Both the position numbers and the translations under genes were made by a program. From Asterias amurensis (taxonomy: Eukaryota), in the NCBI RefSeq assembly GCF_032118995.1, contig NC_092652.1:15638336-15688335 (forward strand): a stretch of 50,000 bases of DNA. Direction: 5' to 3'. The notes under the pieces are model-generated. The model did not search any database. It was given only the letters and a program-made list of their open reading frames with translations, and was not told the DNA's origin. Within the stretch, counting starts at the first letter, position 1, and every line of letters begins with the position of its first letter. Positions 8,135 through 37,470 of the stretch are shown one piece after another.

Positions 8135-8516
8135 TTTAAAGGCAGTGGACACTACTGTTAATTACTCAAAATAATTATTAGCATATAACCTTTCTTGGTG
8201 ACGAGTAATGGGGAGAGGTTGATGGTATAACACATTGTGAGAAACGGCTCCCTCTGAAGTGCCATAGTTTTCGAGAAAGAAGTAATTTTCCACGAATTTG
8301 ATTTCGAGACCTTAGATTTAGAACTTGAGGTCTTGAAATCAACCACCGAAACGCACACAACTTCGTGTGACAAGGGTGTTTTCTTCTTTCATTATTATCT
8401 CGCAACTTTGATGACCGATTGAGTTCAAATTTTCACAGGTTTGTTATTTTATGCATATGTTGACATACACCAACTGTGAAGGCTAGTCTTTACCAATAGT
8501 GTCCACTGCCTTTAAA
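8135..8516. mobile_element. MITE family A full-length copy, about 382 bp.
   Basis: TIRs 'AAAGGCAGTGGACACTACTGTTAATTACTCAAAATAATTATTAGC' and 'CCAATAGTGTCCACTGCCTTTAAA'. Central palindrome 'gatttcgagaccttagatttagaacttgaggtcttgaaatcaacc'. Confidence 0.85.
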
Positions 8517-10524: not shown

Positions 10525-11050
10525 TTACTCGCAGCTAGAGCTGAACCGCGAAGGACGCTGCTTCAACGGGTTCGAGAAGCAGGCATGCAAGGGCGCCTTT
10601 GGCTGCCAGCCACACTAACCCATTATGACTACGGAGCGCAGCCAAAGATCGAAAGTGTTTGATTTTTCCCGCGGGAGGGACACCGGATGGTCTAGAAGAC
10701 CCTTTAGAACCAACGCACAACTCACTTCACATATAGCCCTGGCCGGGAATCGAACCGGGGTCGTCACCTTGGTGAGAGGCGAGCGCTTTAACGCACAAGC
10801 CAACCATGCCACCCAAACATCAACCCAAACACCCAAACATCAACCCATTATGACCACAGAGCACAGGAAAGATCGAAAGTCTTTGATTTTTCCCGAGGGA
10901 GGAAAACCAGATAGTCTGGAAAACCCTCGCGGCACAGCAGAGAACCAAGTTCGCACAACTCAACTCACATATGGCCCTGGCCGGGACTCGAACCGGGGTC
11001 ACCTTTTGTGAGAGGCGAGCGCTTTACGCACAAGCCAACCGTACCACCAC
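10525..11050 (-). mobile_element. Two tandem copies (about 10525-10830 and 10830-11050) of a tRNA-derived SINE, on the minus strand.
   Basis: Reverse complement gives 'GGTTGGCTTGTGCGTAAAGCGCTCGCCTCTCACAA(A)GGTGACCCCGGTTCGAGTCCCGGCCAGGGCCATATGTGAGTTGAGTTGTGCGAAC...'. It has a tRNA T-arm (GGTTCGAGTCC) and a D-loop-like region, and the unit is repeated with about 85% identity. The ORF track's 128-aa ORF here is an artefact. Confidence 0.7.
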
Positions 11051-12803: not shown

Positions 12804-13177
12804 TAAAGACACTGGACACTATTGGTAATTGTCAAAGTCTAGACACCACATTTGGTGTATCTCAACATATGCATAAAATAATAAACCTGTGAAAATTTGA
12901 GCTCAATCGGTCATCGAAGTTGCGAGATTATTAATGAAAGAAAAAACACCCCTGTTACACGAAGTTGTGTGCGTTTAGACGGTTGATTTCGAGACCTCAA
13001 TGGTCTCGAAATCAAATTCGTGGAAAATTACTCCTTTCTCGAAAACTATGTTACTTCAGAGGGAGCCGTTTCTCACAATGTTTTATACCATCAATCTCTC
13101 CCCATTACTCGTTATCAAGTAAGTTTTTATGCTAATAATTATGTTGAGTAATTACCAATAGTGTCCACTGCCTTTAA
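12804..13177. mobile_element. MITE family A full-length copy.
   Basis: TIRs 'AAAGACACTGGACACTATTGGTAATTGTCAAAG' and 'TGAGTAATTACCAATAGTGTCCACTGCCTTTAA'. Internal 'gatttcgagacctcaatggtctcgaaatcaaattcgtgg' (shortened palindrome loop). Confidence 0.85.
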
Positions 13178-14205: not shown

Positions 14206-14549
14206 TTAAAGCCATTATTATACACTTTCGGTAAACAGTGATGTCCAAGTCCCACACTTCGTGTATCACAACTTATATATAAAATAACAAAAGTCGGGGG
14301 AAAATAACGGGAAAACCCACTCTTGTTTCCGCAAGTTTCGCCGTGTCATGACATGTGTTTAACATAAGTCCGTAATTCTCGCTATCGAGAATTAATATTG
14401 TTTTAATGTTTACTCAAAAAGTAAAGCATATCATGGAATAATATTTTTAAAGAGAAGTATTTCACCATTACCTTCTGTTAACCCTGTAAGTTATTTGTAA
14501 ATGTGTGAACTTTTTCTTTTCTGTACCGAAAGTGTATAATGGCTTTAAA
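14206..14549. mobile_element. MITE family B copy (related to family A).
   Basis: TIRs 'AAAGCCATTATTATACACTTTCGGTAAACAGTG' and 'CCGAAAGTGTATAATGGCTTTAAAG'. Core 'cgagaattaa...gggaaaacccac...ttgtgatacacgaagtgtggg' shared with 18383-18757 and 27271-27624. Confidence 0.8.
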
Positions 14550-15082: not shown

Positions 15083-15943
15083 ATATCAAGAGGTAAATTC
15101 ACTAACGTATTAAAACTCAAACAACCGGAAGCGTTTCTTCATGTTATCATATCATGGAAACCATTTGCCGTATCAAATCCATGAAATGTGCTAAACCTTC
15201 TGTGTAAACCACCTCATGACGACCTAGTGGTGTGAGTGTCATGGTGTCATTAACATTATTGTTAAACCTTAGTTTTAGTGAAATTAAACAACATGTAGGA
15301 ACTTAAACTGTGGTGATAAATTTTGTCTTTACAAATAATGTATTTAAGTTAAAAATAAGTCGTGGATAAGTCGTTAATATTGGGCGCGAGAATACCGGGG
15401 AATCGCAGGGAACGCTTACTGCGACAGACATTTAAAGACTTGTCCACAAGTCTATGCATGATCAACTCATATTGTCATGTTGTTAGTGACTGATTTATTA
15501 TCTAGCCGGCTGAAGTTGATTGTCCATATTATATTGTGATAGATCTATACGTTGTAAGTTCAAGGTCAAGTCAAATGTTAATCGATAGGATTTGTAGGCC
15601 TATTTATCATTATTGTCCTAAAAAGACAGACTGCAGTATATTGTGAACACTTGGTTGGGGCATGGAGGAAGGTTGGGGGTAGGCCTTGTCTTGATTTGTG
15701 TCGTTGATTTTGTTAGCGTAGTCGCTGATGTCGCAACTTGAATACTGTCCATACACATGGATGGAGAAGAGATCTGTATCACACAAGAATCTGGATCAAA
15801 CTAGATGTGTGGACTTTCCCCAATCCTTCCGAGTAATAGGTTGATGTAGCGCCCTCTAACTATTAGCACAAGAACAGGCCACTTATCAAGACATACTTTG
15901 GGAGTGGGGACAGGGGAGGAGGAGTTGTAAAGTTTAAAGGCAG

Positions 15944-16320
15944 TGGACAATATTGGTACTTGTCAAAGACTAGCCTTCACAGTTGGTGTATCTCAACATA
16001 TGCATAAAATAACAAACCTGTGAAAATTTGAGGTTAATCGGTCATCGAACTCGCGAGATAAAAATGAAAGAAGAACCACCCTTGTCACACGAAGTTGTGT
16101 GCTGTCAACTGCTTGATTTCGAGACCTCAAATTCTAAACTTGAGGTCTCGAAATCAAATTCGTGGAAAATTGCTTCTTTCTCAAAAACTACTTTACTTTT
16201 AGAGGGAGCCGTTTCTCACAATGTTTTATACCATCAACCTCTCCCGATTACTCATAATCAATAAAGGTTTTATGCTGATAATTATTTTGAGTAATTACCA
16301 ATAGTGTCCACTGCCTTTAA
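15944..16320. mobile_element. MITE family A full-length copy in PCTP intron 1.
   Basis: TIRs 'AAAGGCAGTGGACAATATTGGTACTTGTCAAAGAC' and 'TTTGAGTAATTACCAATAGTGTCCACTGCCTTTAA'. Palindrome 'gatttcgagacctcaaattctaaacttgaggtctcgaaatcaaattcgtgg'. Confidence 0.85.
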
Positions 16321-17650: not shown

Positions 17651-17768
17651 GACTCAGGATTGTATGAATACAAGGTATTTGGGACATTAAGTGGTGTTGG
17701 ACCAGAGACTTGCGCCAAGGTGTATGTTGATCTGGAGTACCGGAAAACATGGGACAGTTATGTCAACA
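17651..17768 (+). CDS. PCTP: PCTP-like coding exon 2. Translation: DSGLYEYKVFGTLSGVGPETCAKVYVDLEYRKTWDSYVN, then 1 nt.
   Basis: Acceptor tggttttgAG|GAC and donor A|GTAAGT. Matches PCTP 'TGLYEYKVFGVL...DSDYRKQWDQYVK'. Phase 0 to phase 1 is consistent with exon 1 and exon 3. Confidence 0.85.
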
Positions 17769-17894
17769 GTAAGTATGATTCCCCATCTTTATCCCCCTAG
17801 CAGACTGCTGAACATTTTCAACTTATTTTTCAAGAGATTGTCGAAAGTTGTCATTATATTTCAAGGTATAAAGTTATATAAACCACAAGTAAAA

Positions 17895-18030
17895 TTGACT
17901 ATCGCCCCCGAACAAAGACATTGACAAAATGGGGAGACCAGCAAAAGGCTCTAACACGAACATTTAATAGGACTTAATAGCTCAGTTGTTAAAGAGTCGG
18001 CACAAGTCCCGCTCTAGTAAATTTTTCTTT
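17895..18030 (+). mobile_element. tRNA-like SINE-type unit, copy 1.
   Basis: 'cccccgaacaaagacattgacaaaatggggagacc...aatagctcagttgttaaagagtcggcacaagtcccgctctagtaa' parallels 18168-18310. Confidence 0.55.
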
Positions 18031-18167
18031 GTCCAACCAAAAATTAACTTAAGAATTTACCAAGTTGGTGTCCCTTGTGTTTTTTTTAACTTAATATTTG
18101 AAATTAACTTGGGAGTGTGATCTGTGGCTTTACAGCAGTTACAGGTTGTATTGCATCTGAGTGGCAC

Positions 18168-18310
18168 CCCTGAACAAAGAATTTGTCAAAAAAGGGACAC
18201 CGCCAACATAAGCACCGAATAGCTCAGTAAGTAAAGCGCGGGCACAATAATCCGGAGGTCGCAGGTTCTAGTCCCACTCCATTCACTTTGTATTTTTCTA
18301 GCCCCCAAAA
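18168..18310 (+). mobile_element. tRNA-like SINE-type unit, copy 2.
   Basis: 'cccctgaacaaagaatttgtcaaaaaagggacaccgccaacataagcaccgaatagctcagtaagtaaagcgcgggcacaataatccggaggtcgcaggttctagtcccactcc' has a D-loop-like 'TAGCTCAGT' and a T-arm-like 'GGTTCTAGTCC'. Confidence 0.6.
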
Positions 18311-18382
18311 CATCCTACAGAGGGTAGTTTTAAAAAGACCCCAACCTGGCCTCACATGAAGGCCCTCAACTCAATGGCAAAA

Positions 18383-18757
18383 AAACCCATTATACACTTT
18401 CTGAACAGAAAAAAATATATAAAAGTTCTCAGATTTACAAATAACTTACAGGGTTTACAGAAGGTAATGGTGAAAGACTTCTCTTGAAATATTATTCAAT
18501 GAAATGCTTTACTTTTTGAGAAAACACTAAAACAATTAATTCTCGTTAATGAGAATTAAGGATTTATTGTAAACACATGTCATGACACTGCGAAACGTGC
18601 GGAAACAAGGGTGGGTTCTCCCGTTATTTTCTCCCTGACTCCGATGATCGATTGAGCCTAAATTTTCACAGGTTTGTTATTTTATATATAAGTTGTGATA
18701 CACGAAGAGTGGGCCTTTGGACAACACTGTTTACCAAAAGTGTCCAATGGCTTTAAA
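18383..18757. mobile_element. MITE family B copy in PCTP intron 2.
   Basis: 'AAAACCCATTATACACTTTCTGAACAG...aattttcacaggtttgttattttatatataagttgtgatacacgaagagtgggcctttggacaacactgtttaccaaaagtgtccaatggctttaaa'. Confidence 0.8.
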
Positions 18758-18783
18758 CAAATTAGGCACAATAGGGTTACTTC

Positions 18784-19012
18784 ATTTTGTCTATAGGGGC
18801 TCTCTTAGACTTGTGGACAAGTCGTTAAATCGGCCCCACACGCTGAAAAAGTGCTCTCGCGAGATCACTGCTCTCACGCGAACTGATGGCTCCCCGATTT
18901 GAGTCGAAATCGGGGAGCCATCAGTTTGCGCGAGAGCAGTGATCTCGCGAGAGCACTATCTCAGCGCGTGGGGCCGATTTAACGACTTGTCCACAAGTTT
19001 AGGGCTCTCTCG
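18784..19012. repeat. Near-perfect long inverted repeat (hairpin or cruciform-forming), arms of about 110 bp, centred near 18900.
   Basis: Left arm 'ggggctctcttagacttgtggacaagtcgttaaatcggccccacacgctgaaaaagtgctctcgcgagatcactgctctcacgcgaactgatggctccccgatttgagtc'. Right arm 'gaaatcggggagccatcagtttgcgcgagagcagtgatctcgcgagagcactatctcagcgcgtggggccgatttaacgacttgtccacaagtttagggctctctc' is its reverse complement with about 5 mismatches. The terminal motif 'agacttgtccacaagtct' also occurs at 15432-15455. Confidence 0.85.
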
Positions 19013-20989
19013 GCTAATTTTTCTTAACCTCATTCCTACAATCTATGCATTTCAGCGCTCTTGTTATGCCATTTCTTAATTCTTGAAAGCAAGTTTGATG
19101 TGGAGGTAACATCAAATTACATTAGTGTGTATGAAGGACAAGAAGTTATACCAGTGATCGTCCAGGTTTTTCCAAAAGGGATGAGGGTCTTTTTATTTTG
19201 TATTTCTTAAGGTGGTCACCAAGCATTTTATTTCAAATTGGGATTCTTCAGTTTAAAGTCACCACCTACCTTTAATGTAGTTTACAAGTTCTTCAAAGAT
19301 TAGTTAGTTAAATGAGAAATACACCAAAAATTTGTTTAAAAAAAAAAGAAAAAAAGGGGGCGACGGCCTCAAACAAAGGATGATGGAGGGAGTGGGGACG
19401 AACAACTGGATTTTTGTTTTGCGTAGTATAGAAAATAGTTTTCAACAATTAAACGCAGAGTTTAATTGGTATTGTCAAAAAGCTTATAAAATGTACCTTT
19501 TTACTTTTGGTCGTCCTCTAATTTTTTAATCTCAAATAACATTGTCAGCGTGTAAATAGAAAAACAGTTTTAATACCACATGAAAGCTTATCATAGGTAG
19601 TGTTGAATCTCAAAGGTCTGGGTCCAAATTGGGGATCAGGGCTGGGGGGGGGGGGTGACTGGCACAAGCCCCCCCTTTTAATTATTGTATTGTCAGTGTT
19701 TTTTTCCCCTTTGTAAACATTGTAAACTGTAGTCTTACTCAGCAGTTTTTAATTACCATTTATGTCATTTAAGAATCATACTAATAACAATTGTAGTAAT
19801 ACCAGTAGTATTGTAGTTGTACAGCACTGTTTAACCCATAGATCTACATGTACATGTACACGTGGACTGAGCATGTACTGTGAGCTGCATTTGTGTGCAC
19901 TCCCATGTTTGTGTACACACCTTTGAAAAAGCCTCAAATATTATGTGCTTGTGACGCGCATGCACATACATGTATGCACAACAATCTTATGATTTGGCTG
20001 AGGTTTTGCAATTTGTTTCTTTCCAACATTCAAAGCGTATTTTTATTGTTTAAATTAAGACAAAAGATGCACTTCACAGAAATAGTGCATATCACAAAAA
20101 CTGATTTCACAGAAATAGTGTATAGCAGAGCAAAGACAGGTCCTGCTGGATGGTTTCTTACAAGTTTTAAATGATTATATCTCAACTGTTAAGATCTGGG
20201 GTTACACAAATACCTATTGCCCCAAACTTAAATAGACTTTTAACTACACCTAATGCCTAATATACATATTTATACAATGACATAATGATCAATAATACAG
20301 ATAAAATACTTAAATGATCAAATGATTTTCAACAAAATGCCAAACTGCCCTGCCTTTGTTATGAGCTTTTGTTACAATAAACAAAAACAAAAGTCTTTCA
20401 ACAAAGTTCAGAATTTGATATTAAGAGGATATGAAGACAACTAAAAAGCGACATGGGTTACTTTTAAACTTAAATCACAACCTCGCCTTTCTGTGTGGCC
20501 TTTCTTTAGCTTTATAACTCGTGTGAGATAATTGGCTTTACCTTTATCCGTCCAAAGAATTCAATAATCGGATTAAAGCTCTCCAGCTAATGATAAGAGT
20601 TTAGCAATATCACCCGATGAAAAAAAGATTAGAACTGAACAGAAAAGACTGAACATTAGTAATTTCTTCTTTGTTCAACCCAACATCATATACATGTAAC
20701 CCAGTCAGTTTCCCTTAGTTTATCACTTGGAAACATTTGAATTTGCAGTTACTGAACACAAAACCGGTTCATTTTACACTACATTGTATCCTTGAAACAA
20801 GAAAAAATAGTCTTTCAAGAAAAAAAATACGTGCGTTGTTTTCTAATACTTTTTGGAGGTGACACAGGAATGCAATTTTTCTTATTTTAGGCGTACCTCC
20901 TTAAAGCGTTGTACAGCTTCCTTTTACCATAGAGCAGGGTCTGTTTTTATAAGGAGCAAACCAAGTCTTCGAGACCCATAAATGACTAA

Positions 20990-22038
20990 GTTCCTAGGGA
21001 CTAGTACCAAATCAATTTACCAAATCAAATCAAATCACGGTGACTTAGGAACAAATCAGTTTACCTGGACTTTATGATTTAATCAATTCACTGGAACATG
21101 GGAGAATCAGTTCACAATGACCTTGATAGGAACAAATCATTTTACTAAGGAACAAATCAATATGAACAAATAAATTTTAGTTTTACCTAGGAACATTTCA
21201 ATCCACTAGGACCTAGGAAAAATTCAATTCACTAAGACATACTGTATAGGAACAAATCAATTCACTAGGAACAAATGAATTCACTAGGACCTAGGAATAA
21301 TTCAATTCACTAGACATTGGAAAAAATTAAATCCACATTCCACTAGTACCTAGGAACAATTCAATTAACTAGGACATATAGGAACAAATCAATTCACTAG
21401 GAACAAATCAATTCACTAGGACCTAGGAATAATTCAATTCACTAGAACCTAGGAACAATTCAATCCACTAGGACCTAGGAACAATTCAATTCACTGAGAC
21501 CTAAGAACAAATCGATTCACCGAGAACTAGAAACAATTCAATTCACTGAGACCTAGGAGCAATTCAATTCACTAGGAACAATTAAATCCACTAGGACCTT
21601 GGAACAATTCAATTCACTGGGACCTAAGAACAAATCGATTCACCGAGAACTAGAAACAATTCAATTCACTGAGACCTAGGAGCAATTCAATTCACTAGGA
21701 ACAATTAAATCCACTAGGACCTAGGAACAATTCAATTCACTGGGACCTAAGAACAAATCGATTCACCGAGAACTAGAAACAATTCAATTCACTGAGACCT
21801 AGGAGCAATTAAATTCACTAGGAACAATTAAATTCACAAGGACCTAGGAACAACTCAATTCACTGAGACCTAGGAACAAATCAACCCACTAAGACCTATG
21901 CACAAATCAATTCACTGAGACCTAGAAACAATTCAATTCACTAGGACCTAGGAAACATGCAATTCACTAGGAACAAATCAATTCACTAGGACCTAGGAAC
22001 AAATCAATTTACTAAGACCTAGGAACAAATCAATTACA
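20990..22038. repeat. Minisatellite or satellite array (base unit about 20-24 bp, 'AGGAACAAATCAATTCACTAGGACCT'-like) with a 118-bp higher-order repeat, in PCTP intron 2.
   Basis: The basic motif '(g/t)aggaacaa(a/t)tcaattcact' is iterated about 45 times. The segments 21478-21595, 21596-21713 and 21714-21831 are near-identical 118-bp higher-order units ('ggaacaattcaattcactgagacctaagaacaaatcgattcaccgagaactagaaacaattcaattcactgagacctaggagcaattcaattcactaggaacaattaaatccactaggacct'). Confidence 0.9.
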
Positions 22039-23600
22039 AACGCTTTTTGTAGACCGACTCGTCCGATCCAAGGCAACGTGTTCCTTTAACCGTAAAAATT
22101 GTAAATAAAGGGTATTTTGACCCTGCCAGGTCAACCCAAAACGCAAGTTTATGCGTTGTGCCACAAACCACATTCACAAAAACATGATGAATGATTCTTC
22201 TTTCTCAATGAATAAAAGAAATGTGACCCCCATCCCACCCAACCAATAATGTAGTACAGGGAAGCCACATGTCCTGTTGTATGAAGCGAGTGTTTATTAT
22301 TGTTTATATAAAAGTGTTCTCAGATCCGCCTATAACCTTACAATTTTCAGGAACTTGGTTACCATAGACATCCACTTTAGGTCTAACCTTCGGTATGTTG
22401 TTTGGGCTACACTTTCATAATGAAGTACGAGAAAAACCACTAACTTTAAGTTGTTCAAACCATTTAATTCATGTTTTGGCCATGGTTAAAAAATGCTGGA
22501 AAATGGAGTAGAACAATTTTGAATTAAGTGCTCACTTTTTAGCCGCCCAAATGAGGACTTCTGAAGGCTTATTTACTTGCTTTTAGTTTAGCAATCTTTT
22601 AAGAATTTACGGCATACTGTTGGAAAATGATGGACATTTTGAAGCTTATTTATCTAAATGAACAACTATAAATTGTGGAATCACTTTGAAAAATATTTCA
22701 CTTACCAGAGATTTTCGTAATTGTCATTAGGCCAACTCTTTTCCAGCCCGCCTTTGCTAAGTTGCAACTGATGCGACGCACTGTGCAGGCCTACTGCTTG
22801 GTGTGTGGAGCGTCAAACACTGTTTTTTCCTGCCTACTGGATTACGCAACATTAATCCGACGCTCTTCTCCATCTGCCTTTACTGACATGACGCTCTTAA
22901 CATATGAGGACTGTGAACATTTCCGATAGAACCAGGCCACAAATTGTGCTTCTGAGTCGTTCTGCTCGGCTGTCTAAAAGCATGAAACAATGAATTCGGA
23001 GTGAAACTTGCTGGAAATCTTTTTTTCATAGGAACACAATAATATGTTTGAGAAAATGAATGATTAATTTAAAGGAGCTAAACAGTATTATTTTTTGGGA
23101 AAACAAGTAATTATTTTTTATAGGAACGAAATTTAGGTCCTCTCATAATTTTTCTTTTATTTTGTATATTTAATTTTTTTTAAATTTATGCTTTATTTAA
23201 TTATAAATTTTTTTTTTTTTTTTTGGGGGGGGGGACATTAGTTCAAATATATATCATTTGTTTTCCTCAAATTAAAAGTGGGTATGGAGCCCTTGATGTG
23301 CCATTTGATTTATCAGGATAAGAAAACTACTACTTCAAGTATTTCTGTTAAGGTCAATGGGTTTAGGTGTATTTCCTGGCAACAAAAGAGCTGTCAATCA
23401 ATCTCCTGAGGTACCCCTTACCAGAAGAAAATTGCTGTGCCCCTTCAAGAGCGAAGTTCAAGGTCTAAAAATGGTTTTGAGGGAACAACATTTATTTCAT
23501 GGTTCTTTTTTGTTAAGTGTTCAAAACCTATTAGTTTAAAGGCTCCGTACCTGGTCTTTACTAATTGAAAACTCAATTGATTTGTTTTTTTCTTTTGCAG

Positions 23601-23680
23601 AGTTGTATAAAGTTAAAGATGGTGACAGAGAGGGCGTTTACTGGAGAGTCAACTACCCATTCCCAATGTCATCAAGAGAT
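23601..23680 (+). CDS. PCTP: PCTP-like coding exon 3. Translation: (K)LYKVKDGDREGVYWRVNYPFPMSSRD.
   Basis: Acceptor tcttttgcAG|AG completes the AAG codon. Matches PCTP 'KELYEQECNGETVVYWEVKYPFPMSNRD'. Donor GAT|GTATCT. The downstream in-frame run VSFLLL... does not match PCTP and is intronic. Confidence 0.8.
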
Positions 23681-33625: not shown

Positions 33626-33889
33626 AAAATAACTTTGCAAAAAGTTGGGAAGGTTGCATTATGCTCTACCAGACAGGCTCTTACATGTCCTATGTGGATA
33701 ATACCCAGTACTACTTGAAGTCAAGACAGTAATTGTGAAGCGTAGTGTAGTTACATCCAGGGGCGGTATACACATCCTCGATCCCAGTATGTGTGCGTGA
33801 CGGTTGCATGAATGTATAATCGAACGGAACTGTTGGATGAAGGGCAGAATTGTTGGATGAAGGGCAGAATGTGTGTTTGTAACAAATAG

Positions 33890-34060
33890 CCAGCGCCTTA
33901 AACGACTTGCCATCAAGTCTAGGGTTTACCCTGTTTCAGCCCCAGGAATAGGCGGCAATATGCCACTAGTGACAGTTGAGAGTTGAGTTTGGTTGACAGC
34001 CCACATCAGTCTATCCTAGCTCCTCCCGTGAAGTGGCAGTTCCTGGCCTTGAAATAGGCG
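33890..34060. repeat. Interspersed repeat (family E, motif 'ccctgtttcagccccagga').
   Basis: Aligns with 47755-47900. The reverse complement of 49958-49985 ('cctagggctgaaacagggttccccc') is a further partial copy. Confidence 0.6.
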
Positions 34061-37360: not shown

Positions 37361-37470
37361 AATGATTTCGAGGTTGAACAAAGAATTGACTAGAGTGGGA
37401 TTCGAACCAACGACCTCCGCATTAACGTGCTGGCGCTCTACCAACTCAGCTATCTAGCCGTATATTGGCA
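37361..37470 (-). pseudogene. tRNA-like sequence (tRNA pseudogene or tRNA-derived SINE head) on the minus strand.
   Basis: The reverse complement of 37393-37460 reads 'GGCTAGATAGCTGAGTTGGTAGAGCGCCAGCACGTTAATGCGGAGGTCGTTGGTTCGAATCCCACTCT'. It has an acceptor-like 5' end, a D-arm GCTGAGTTGGTAGAGC, and a T-arm GGTTCGAATCC, but the anticodon stem does not pair cleanly. The adjacent 'gatttcgaggttgaacaaagaattgactagagtggga' is duplicated at 37172 and 37361. Confidence 0.45.

Follow-up and report, generated by a model that had tools for sequence, protein, structure and literature searches.

MITEs such as the plant Tourist and Stowaway elements are short, non-coding, multi-copy sequences with terminal inverted repeats and a target-site duplication of fixed length, and they often lie in introns and UTRs. 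Typically they are AT-rich, and the duplicated sequence is TA or TWA. The Drosophila element Mar is said to be a MITE of the hAT superfamily. Another Drosophila element, Foldback (FB), was reportedly described by Potter in 1982 as an inverted repeat over nearly its whole length, which forms a hairpin and is flanked by 9-bp duplications; the sea-urchin TU foldback elements, reportedly described by Liebermann et al. in 1983, are said to be foldback-type transposons of echinoderms with 8-bp duplications. The arms of FB and TU measure from hundreds of base pairs to kilobases and are made of tandem arrays of sub-repeats. In root-knot nematodes, the Mutator/Foldback family Tm1, which includes MITE-like members, has long inverted repeats and most often duplicates 9 bp, within a range of 8-10 bp (PMC3169594), and Muta1, an active Mutator-like element of Aedes aegypti, generates duplications of 8 or 9 bp with no target preference (PMC5225508). 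Here we describe a palindrome in intron 2 of a PCTP-like gene of the starfish Asterias amurensis. With a probability that we put at about 85%, it is a copy of a foldback-shaped MITE, a non-autonomous DNA transposon of class II (cut-and-paste).

The palindrome lies in the 50-kb stretch of A. amurensis DNA that was analysed (the window), which has numerous dispersed repeats and no long ORFs. Six exon-like blocks on the + strand of the window match a PCTP/START-domain protein, as re-checked against database proteins; the top database match of the blocks is the PCTP-like protein of Asterias rubens, and the differences fall inside exons. When the exons of the window are spliced at canonical GT/AG sites, the product is a 217-aa protein identical to the A. 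amurensis PCTP-like protein XP_071788930.1. Exon 2 (17651-17768, + strand) and exon 3 (23601-23680, + strand), both placed by their GT/AG splice sites, enclose intron 2, which is defined by the GT/AG junctions and the spliced product and runs from 17769 to 23600 on the + strand. The palindrome is wholly inside this interval, in agreement with the preliminary description of this DNA, which had assigned it to intron 2 of PCTP. Most likely, it is a neutral intronic passenger of the gene.

A repeat search of the window resolved the palindrome into a left arm at 18806-18900 and a right arm at 18907-19001, each 95 nt long and 94% complementary to the other, separated by a central spacer of 6 nt, GAGTCG, at 18901-18906. 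The preliminary description had noticed a near-perfect inverted repeat with almost no spacer at this place, and such a repeat is indeed there; the arms, which it had taken to be ~110 bp long with about 5 mismatches, measure 95 nt and differ at 6 positions. Five of these differences are transitions and one is a transversion; half of the six are CpG-to-CpA changes. The whole element, hereafter copy 1, occupies 18806-19001, begins with TAGACTTGTGG and ends with CCACAAGTTTA. Like a MITE, it is short (196 bp) and non-coding, and no ORF of at least 110 aa overlaps it or lies near it. With 54% GC, 18 CpG dinucleotides and a CpG observed/expected ratio (o/e) of 1.28, copy 1 is CpG-rich compared with the window, which has 37.6% GC and a CpG o/e of 0.64; the genome is CpG-depleted. 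Folding, which the preliminary description had proposed as a check, gave -193 kcal/mol for RNA of the palindrome region versus -73 ± 4 in shuffled sequences (z = -29.5), and -113 versus -33 ± 3 for DNA (z = -23.9). The null consisted of 200 dinucleotide shuffles, none of which folded as well as the palindrome. With 95-bp arms and a 6-nt spacer, putative fragility or cruciform extrusion at this locus is physically plausible.

Copy 1 is a transposon insertion. It is flanked by the 9-bp sequence GGGCTCTCT on both sides, at 18797-18805 on the left and, in identical form, at 19002-19010 on the right, a 9/9 match that has a chance probability of 3.8e-6. The orthologous intron of A. rubens (locus L002) lacks the element and has one GGGCTCTCT, at 16201-16209, in the order ...TTTTGTATAGAG-GGGCTCTCT-TGGCTAATTTTT...; the flanks of copy 1 are ~94-96% identical to the A. 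rubens sequence. This filled/empty pair, together with the 9-bp duplication, is the signature of cut-and-paste transposition. Since the A. rubens junction reads ...GGGCTCTCT|TGGC..., without a TA, the TA at each end is part of the element and 9 bp were duplicated. A TA duplication, as in Tc1/mariner or a Stowaway-like MITE, was considered because each end begins with TA, and was rejected because there is no TA at the A. rubens empty-site junction. We likewise rejected an HUH single-strand transposon (Helitron or IS200/IS605-like), for which neither inverted termini nor a duplication is expected, since copy 1 has both inverted termini and a 9-bp duplication.

Judged by sequence alignment, copy 1 belongs to a starfish MITE family. 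Other short elements with the same termini occur in A. amurensis, in A. rubens and in a third starfish, likewise a forcipulatid. The terminus common to the members is TAGACTTGTGGACAAGTCGTTAAAT, with the consensus TAGACTTGTGGACAAGTCGTTAAATGTTTGTCGCGGTG, and the family-wide common terminus extends over ~25-38 nt. Copy 1 begins with the same 25 nt as the family and has internal blocks in common with it, CAGCAGTCTCGCGAGAGCAGTG and GCTCTCACGCGA among them; in comparisons with ordinary members its arm interior reaches scores of 35-66, where shuffles give 20 ± 4. Inside the terminus is a 16-bp near-palindrome, read from the sequence as GACTTGTGGACAAGTC at 18808-18823 in the left terminus, and located by sequence and motif match as GACTTGTCCACAAGTT at 18984-18999 in the right one. 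The arm ends had been said to be palindromic themselves, and they are, over the outermost ~18 nt of each arm: at both places the arrangement is GACTTGT-GG-ACAAGTC. Among 33 termini, the outer half-sites GACTTG/CAAGTC are mostly kept, with single substitutions in a minority, and the central 4 nt are more variable. Since the half-sites are kept and the centre varies, the pattern fits a protein-binding site with two half-sites; the terminal near-palindrome is a probable candidate for the binding site of a transposase.

At up to 3 mismatches, the terminal motif matches the window at five places, versus 0.03 expected, and the 50 kb hold three copies of the family. Copy 2, in intron 1 (15356-15454), is a complete member of ~100 bp; its terminal inverted repeats are ~23 bp long and its interior is not palindromic. 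In A. amurensis a small deletion has damaged the left end; in A. rubens both termini are intact (L002, 11627-11726) and read TAGACTTGTGGATAAGTCGTTAA ... TTAAAGACTTGTCCACAAGTCTA. The right flank of copy 2, TGCATGAT at 15455-15462, equals the left flank TGCATGAT kept in A. rubens, and the two species combined give a duplication of 8 bp, or of 9 bp if the last A of the element is counted. The preliminary description had reported a terminal motif standing alone at 15432-15455. The motif is real (15436-15453), but it is not isolated: it forms the right end (15430-15454) of the ~100-bp copy 2, and its reading as a solo terminus fails, since copy 2 is complete and has an intact left end in A. rubens. 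Copy 3 is a solo right-type terminus, TTAAACGACTTGCCATCAAGTCTA, at 33898-33921 on the + strand, identified by motif match (33903-33920) and present also in A. rubens; an nhmmer search of the window, L002 and L001 with a profile of the terminus gave no partner end for it. The A. rubens PMI locus (25.6 kb) and the Acanthaster PCTP locus (25 kb) contain no copy of the family. Members other than copy 1 range in size from 100 to 266 bp.

The third starfish came from a scan of a metagenome collection with the 18-mer GACTTGTCCACAAGTCTA, which matched 26 loci, 21 of them in assembly JACSEG01. At least 21 JACSEG01 contigs carry the exact 18-mer, and the element-bearing contigs have long uninterrupted ORFs of common animal genes, among them anoctamin, phosphomannose isomerase (PMI), fasciclin, patatin-like lipase, carboxylesterase and C-type lectin. 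One contig aligns on the A. rubens genome as a spliced mRNA, with an exon identity of 89-95%, and the JACSEG01 PMI protein is 94% identical to that of A. rubens and 84-86% identical to those of valvatid starfish. The host-gene ORFs, the spliced alignment and the PMI identities together indicate that these contigs are transcripts of another forcipulatid starfish. The elements sit mainly in the UTRs of these transcripts, and complete copies measure 137-266 bp. A search for further copies and their target-site duplications, which the preliminary description had suggested, thus turned up relatives, several of which have flank matches of 8-9 bp. Over 9 bp, the flanks match at 9/9 in L019 and at 8/9 in L004 and L028; weaker matches were seen in L006 and L012 (6/9 each), L010 (5/9), L016 (3/9) and L005 (1/9), and in the last two of these nine complete copies, copy 1 included, a recognisable duplication is missing. 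Pooled over the nine, 55 of 81 flank positions match, versus ~20-24 expected (binomial P ~1e-12 or less). The metagenome matches outside JACSEG01 (L003, L008, L020-L022 and L025) have no extended consensus and look like chance matches to the 18-mer; in prokaryotic genomes and viral contigs, nothing matches the 23-nt terminus.

Some long-read and amplification chemistries are known to yield spurious near-perfect palindromes with tiny spacers, and the preliminary description had cautioned that this one might be an assembly artefact. Copy 1 would then be a chimeric palindromic read or, if the DNA is genuine, a local inverted duplication formed without transposition. The chance that either is correct seems to us negligible. 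A fold-back chimera copies one molecule, whereas the arms of copy 1 differ at 6 positions (3 of them CpG-to-CpA); the palindrome is bordered by a 9-bp target duplication and has an exact empty site in A. rubens; and it belongs to a family dispersed in three species instead of duplicating local DNA. A local inverted duplication was rejected on this last ground, as copy 1 was not copied from nearby DNA, and the caution about the assembly is effectively set aside by the arm differences, the duplication, the empty site and the dispersed family taken together. The impression that so long an inverted repeat is not simply neutral sequence was sound, in that the palindrome is a foldback-shaped transposon with a 9-bp duplication, an empty site and relatives.

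Classical Foldback sub-repeat arrays were also considered and rejected: TRF was empty, and each arm holds two related units of ~13 nt, 17-20 bp apart (the paired internal units TGCTCTCGCGAGA / TGCTCTCACGCGA). The motif TCTCGCGAGA occurs as an exact match in the left arm (18855-18864) and in the right arm (18943-18952), and is kept in the family. These two occurrences, both within copy 1, are the only exact ones in the 50-kb window; in the ~130 kb of loci examined, all six exact occurrences fall within family members, at the same alignment position. The motif is part of the most conserved internal block of the family. In vertebrates, the same 10-mer is described as the "CGCG element", also a BANP/ZBTB33-associated motif: a methylation-sensitive element of housekeeping promoters that, at CpG-island promoters without a TATA box, sets off transcription in both directions (PMC6192621, PMC2920758, PMC10206803). 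In starfish, TCTCGCGAGA may be a putative transposase-binding site or a regulatory motif that hitch-hikes with the element, or palindromic CG-rich sequence may produce it by coincidence. A bolder proposal is that what the MITE family disseminates through starfish genes and UTRs is a working promoter or transcription-factor motif, or long dsRNA hairpins, or else that TCTCGCGAGA and GACTTG-N4-CAAGTC form the recognition site of a transposase lineage not so far described in echinoderms; we regard this as a long shot.

The hairpin had been suggested, further, to be a pre-miRNA or hpRNA-like precursor. It would then be a functional small-RNA precursor (a pre-miRNA, or a hairpin-RNA/endo-siRNA locus) within the PCTP-like pre-mRNA, and its extremely stable fold, the position of copy 1 in a transcribed intron and the presence of family members in mature starfish transcripts are all in favour of such a role. 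The Rfam scan of the window at gathering score gave only one tRNA-like match, far from copy 1. In a permissive scan of the hairpin itself the best match was MIR862, with 55.5 bits versus a gathering score of 100; these sub-threshold matches, at about half the gathering score and on both strands, are generic long-hairpin matches. A 95-bp stem is several times longer than the stem of an animal pre-miRNA. The hairpin locus is not conserved, since it is absent in the sister species A. rubens, and ordinary family members fold far less well than copy 1 (-0.40 to -0.50 versus -0.93 kcal/mol per nt). In addition, a small-RNA survey of A. rubens found that transposon-derived small RNAs are piRNA-like and that there is a single Ago1-like Argonaute (PMC6085071). 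We consequently hold a small-RNA precursor to be very improbable and do not follow the earlier suggestion: the hairpin belongs to no Rfam family at gathering score, and the locus is missing from A. rubens.

Ordinary family members have loose long inverted repeats, as opposed to the nearly identical arms of copy 1, and no second copy of the palindromic sub-type, or of the interior specific to copy 1, was found in the DNA examined. Probably, one half was copied in inverted orientation, which would have produced the near-identical arms; template switching during repair synthesis is one route by which this might have happened. A slight, non-decisive preference (10 of 14 comparisons) points to the right half as the template. 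The arms would have drifted afterwards, chiefly by CpG decay.

Between the arms of copy 1, the K2P divergence is 0.067, more than the neutral divergence of 0.037-0.038 that separates A. amurensis from A. rubens in the same intron; with CpG sites left out, the arm value falls to ~0.03. The value of 0.067 is awkward for a perfect palindrome inserted after the split, unless there was CpG hypermutation, the source copy was imperfect, or an older insertion was precisely excised in A. rubens. If the insertion predates the split, the empty A. rubens site would reflect precise excision or the sorting of an ancestral polymorphism. The excess arm divergence is in line with this timing, and we kept the option because an animal MULE flanked by its duplication excises precisely in ~90% of events, removing the element and one copy of the duplication (PMC5225508). 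We nevertheless find a pre-split insertion unlikely. CpG decay accounts for half of the mismatches between the arms, in an element unusually rich in CpG (18 CpG, o/e 1.28), and the difference of ~3% that is left agrees with an insertion after the split. Moreover, identical arms in the source copy are not required, and 6 mismatches versus an expectation of at most 3.6 is not a significant excess. The arm divergence thus fits an insertion soon after the split followed by CpG hypermutation, or a source copy that was already imperfect. Under either timing, copy 1 has moved. The preliminary description had spoken of a young foldback transposon: a foldback-shaped transposon it is, as the 9-bp duplication, the empty site and the relatives indicate, and "young" applies only in a relative sense, the arms having diverged more (0.067) than the two species (0.037-0.038).

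Movement of the MITE would depend on a transposase encoded elsewhere in the genome, which would bind the terminal near-palindrome through the half-sites GACTTG/CAAGTC and perhaps, or even probably, the paired internal TGCTCTCGCGAGA-like units as well. The enzyme would excise the element and reinsert it by way of a staggered cut of 9, sometimes 8, bp, and repair of this cut would create the target-site duplication. Duplication lengths are TA in Tc1/mariner, TTAA in piggyBac, 3 bp in PIF/Harbinger and CACTA, and 5 bp in Transib, and all of these superfamilies were ruled out on this basis. In hAT elements the terminus consensus is YARNG and the typical target pattern is nTnnnnAn. The duplications of the starfish family fall within the range of MULEs, which is 8-11 bp and typically 9 bp. 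To judge by the shape of the elements and by how long the duplications are, the enzyme that mobilises the family has close to an even chance of being a Mutator-like (MULE/Foldback/Phantom-type) DDE transposase; we prefer this assignment because Mutator-like elements are the best match for a family that has long arms, duplications of either 8 or 9 bp and no target consensus. We can only infer the superfamily, since the coding partner was not found: no autonomous, transposase-encoding copy with the family termini was recovered from the window, L001, L002, L029 or the 21 element-bearing transcripts. There is no transposase-like ORF of at least 110 aa in the window, and each of the 20 ORFs on the starfish transcripts that bear elements either is a host gene or lacks a Pfam match. 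In catalogue terms, the starfish family may be unclassified.

The same transposon might, alternatively, belong to another superfamily, such as Merlin (8-9-bp duplication), hAT or P (8 bp), or be moved by an undescribed transposase. We lean against this without considering it far-fetched; together, these candidates take up most of the probability that a Mutator-like enzyme leaves. Copy 2 is read most simply with an 8-bp duplication, the window, the starfish loci and the transcripts yielded no transposase partner, and the start of the terminus, TAGAC, partly resembles the hAT consensus. Merlin fits the family better than hAT or P. A hAT-derived MITE was rejected, since 9-bp duplications predominate and only copy 2 fits 8 bp, the fifth base of TAGAC is C where the consensus has G, and the duplications do not follow the hAT target pattern. 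As to other superfamilies in general, four independent copies match at 9/9 or 8/9 over 9 bp, in register with the symmetric TA...TA ends, and a mixture of 8 and 9 bp is documented for an animal MULE (PMC5225508).

The filled/empty pair indicates movement of at least one family of short DNA transposons after, or close to, the divergence of two closely related Asterias species. One of the two, A. amurensis, is a major invasive pest. So clean a pair could be of use in two ways, to score presence or absence as a marker and to start a search for the responsible transposase. It also illustrates that a very long, near-perfect palindrome in an invertebrate assembly need not be an artefact and may be a true transposon; a target-site duplication plus an empty orthologous site provides a practical test. 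The embedded TCTCGCGAGA prompts the question, which can be tested, whether MITEs of deuterostomes carry regulatory motifs. Long-armed MITEs in introns and UTRs are commonplace, and copy 1 would not surprise a transposon specialist; probably, it is a mobile repeat of an unremarkable type, a MITE of foldback shape that has duplications of 8 or 9 bp and is mobilised by a MULE.

Compared with generic MITEs, the starfish family has a duplication of 9 (or 8) bp instead of TA or TWA, and copy 1 departs from the usual AT-richness with its 54% GC and CpG o/e of 1.28. Copy 1 resembles FB and TU in being nearly all inverted repeat, and differs from them in its length of 196 bp and its two sub-repeat units per arm. 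Tm1 is like the starfish family in its non-coding, MITE-like members, its long inverted repeats and its lack of a target consensus; the arms within one Tm1 element are typically ~93% identical, versus 94% in copy 1 (PMC3169594). The Tm1 arms, however, are built of units of 13-15 bp repeated in tandem, and their outer motifs are asymmetric and 7 bp long (PMC3169594), whereas each arm of copy 1 has two related ~13-nt units and its terminal near-palindrome is symmetric. The two families show no similarity in sequence, and a Phantom-type transposase has been identified for Tm1 (PMC3169594), unlike the starfish family, for which none was found. Muta1 differs in that it is a coding element whose activity was shown experimentally (PMC5225508), the starfish family being known from short non-coding copies with a putative link to MULEs. 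Like the starfish family, Muta1 makes duplications of 8 or 9 bp, and its precise excision would leave an empty site of the type seen in A. rubens (PMC5225508).

The PCTP-like gene of the sister species Asterias rubens, at the locus orthologous to the window (L002), carries two blocks of sequence that A. amurensis lacks. The first, a lineage-specific insertion of 1.2 kb (L002 14891-16088, corresponding to window position ~18687), is bounded by terminal inverted repeats of about 45 bp (GGGTACGTTC...GAACGTACCC) in a TATA-rich target, and lies only ~120 bp upstream of the site of the MITE, the 196-bp near-perfect palindrome at window 18806-19001. A. amurensis does not have this insertion, so DNA transposons other than the MITE were also mobile after the two species split. 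The second block, of ~1.26 kb, is found in intron 1 (L002 10234-11497), where A. amurensis has about 38 bp instead (window 15205-15243); one of its ends is similar to window 22024-22090 (87%).

Other repeats are present in the same region. Directly upstream of the MITE, at window 18383-18757, is a dispersed repeat of ~340-370 bp, the copies of which are 82-92% alike. Related copies occur in the window at 14296-14514 (inverted), 12846-12920 and 15978-16052, and in A. rubens at L002 6136-6472, 9310-9563 and 23747-24110; several lie within or near the PCTP-like gene in both Asterias species. Window segments 8136-8497 and 12828-13177 are mutual inverted repeats of ~350 bp (181 nt at 92% and 173 nt at 86%) separated by ~4.3-4.7 kb. 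One possibility is that they form the two arms of a larger transposon, another that they are a repeat present twice in opposite orientations. A 20-bp stretch (TGTTGGATGAAGGGCAGAAT) that is single-copy in A. rubens is tandemly duplicated in A. amurensis (window 33830-33869), some 30 bp before the solo MITE terminus on its upstream side (copy 3, window 33898-33921). Two tRNA-like sequences were also observed, both on the reverse strand: a tRNA called by Rfam at 37387-37459 (41.8 bits), to which ARAGORN could assign no anticodon, and a tRNA-Val(CAC) at 10735-10810, called by ARAGORN alone. Each could represent a tRNA gene, a pseudogene or the head of a SINE.

The JACSEG01 records bearing copies of the MITE family (L004 to L028) are filed as metagenome and are mostly spliced animal transcripts from one forcipulatid starfish. 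Their open reading frames, which lack introns, include anoctamin, PMI and fasciclin, among others, and the PMI is 94% identical to that of A. rubens. Starfish host sequence deposited as a metagenome is a workable supply of eukaryotic repeat copies. One of these contigs, L028, has an unusual arrangement on its reverse strand: in the 459-bp stretch that runs up to the single right terminus there are two left termini, spaced 195 bp apart and preceded by near-identical flanks (AAATACTTG|TAGACTTGAGG and AAATATTTG|TAGACTTGTGA), and the right terminus is followed by AAATGCTTG. This looks like either a partial tandem duplication that took in the target duplication or an aberrant product of transposition.

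Within the MITE family, the exact 10-mer TCTCGCGAGA is a conserved internal feature. In the window and the fetched loci, all exact matches to it fall within family members: twice in copy 1 (window 18855-18864 and 18943-18952), and in the JACSEG01 copies at L004 258-267, L005 1978-1987, L006 1351-1360, L010 2037-2046, L013 1158-1167 and L016 365-374. In vertebrates the same sequence is described as the 'CGCG element' or BANP-type motif of bidirectional promoters (PMC6192621, PMC2920758, PMC10206803).
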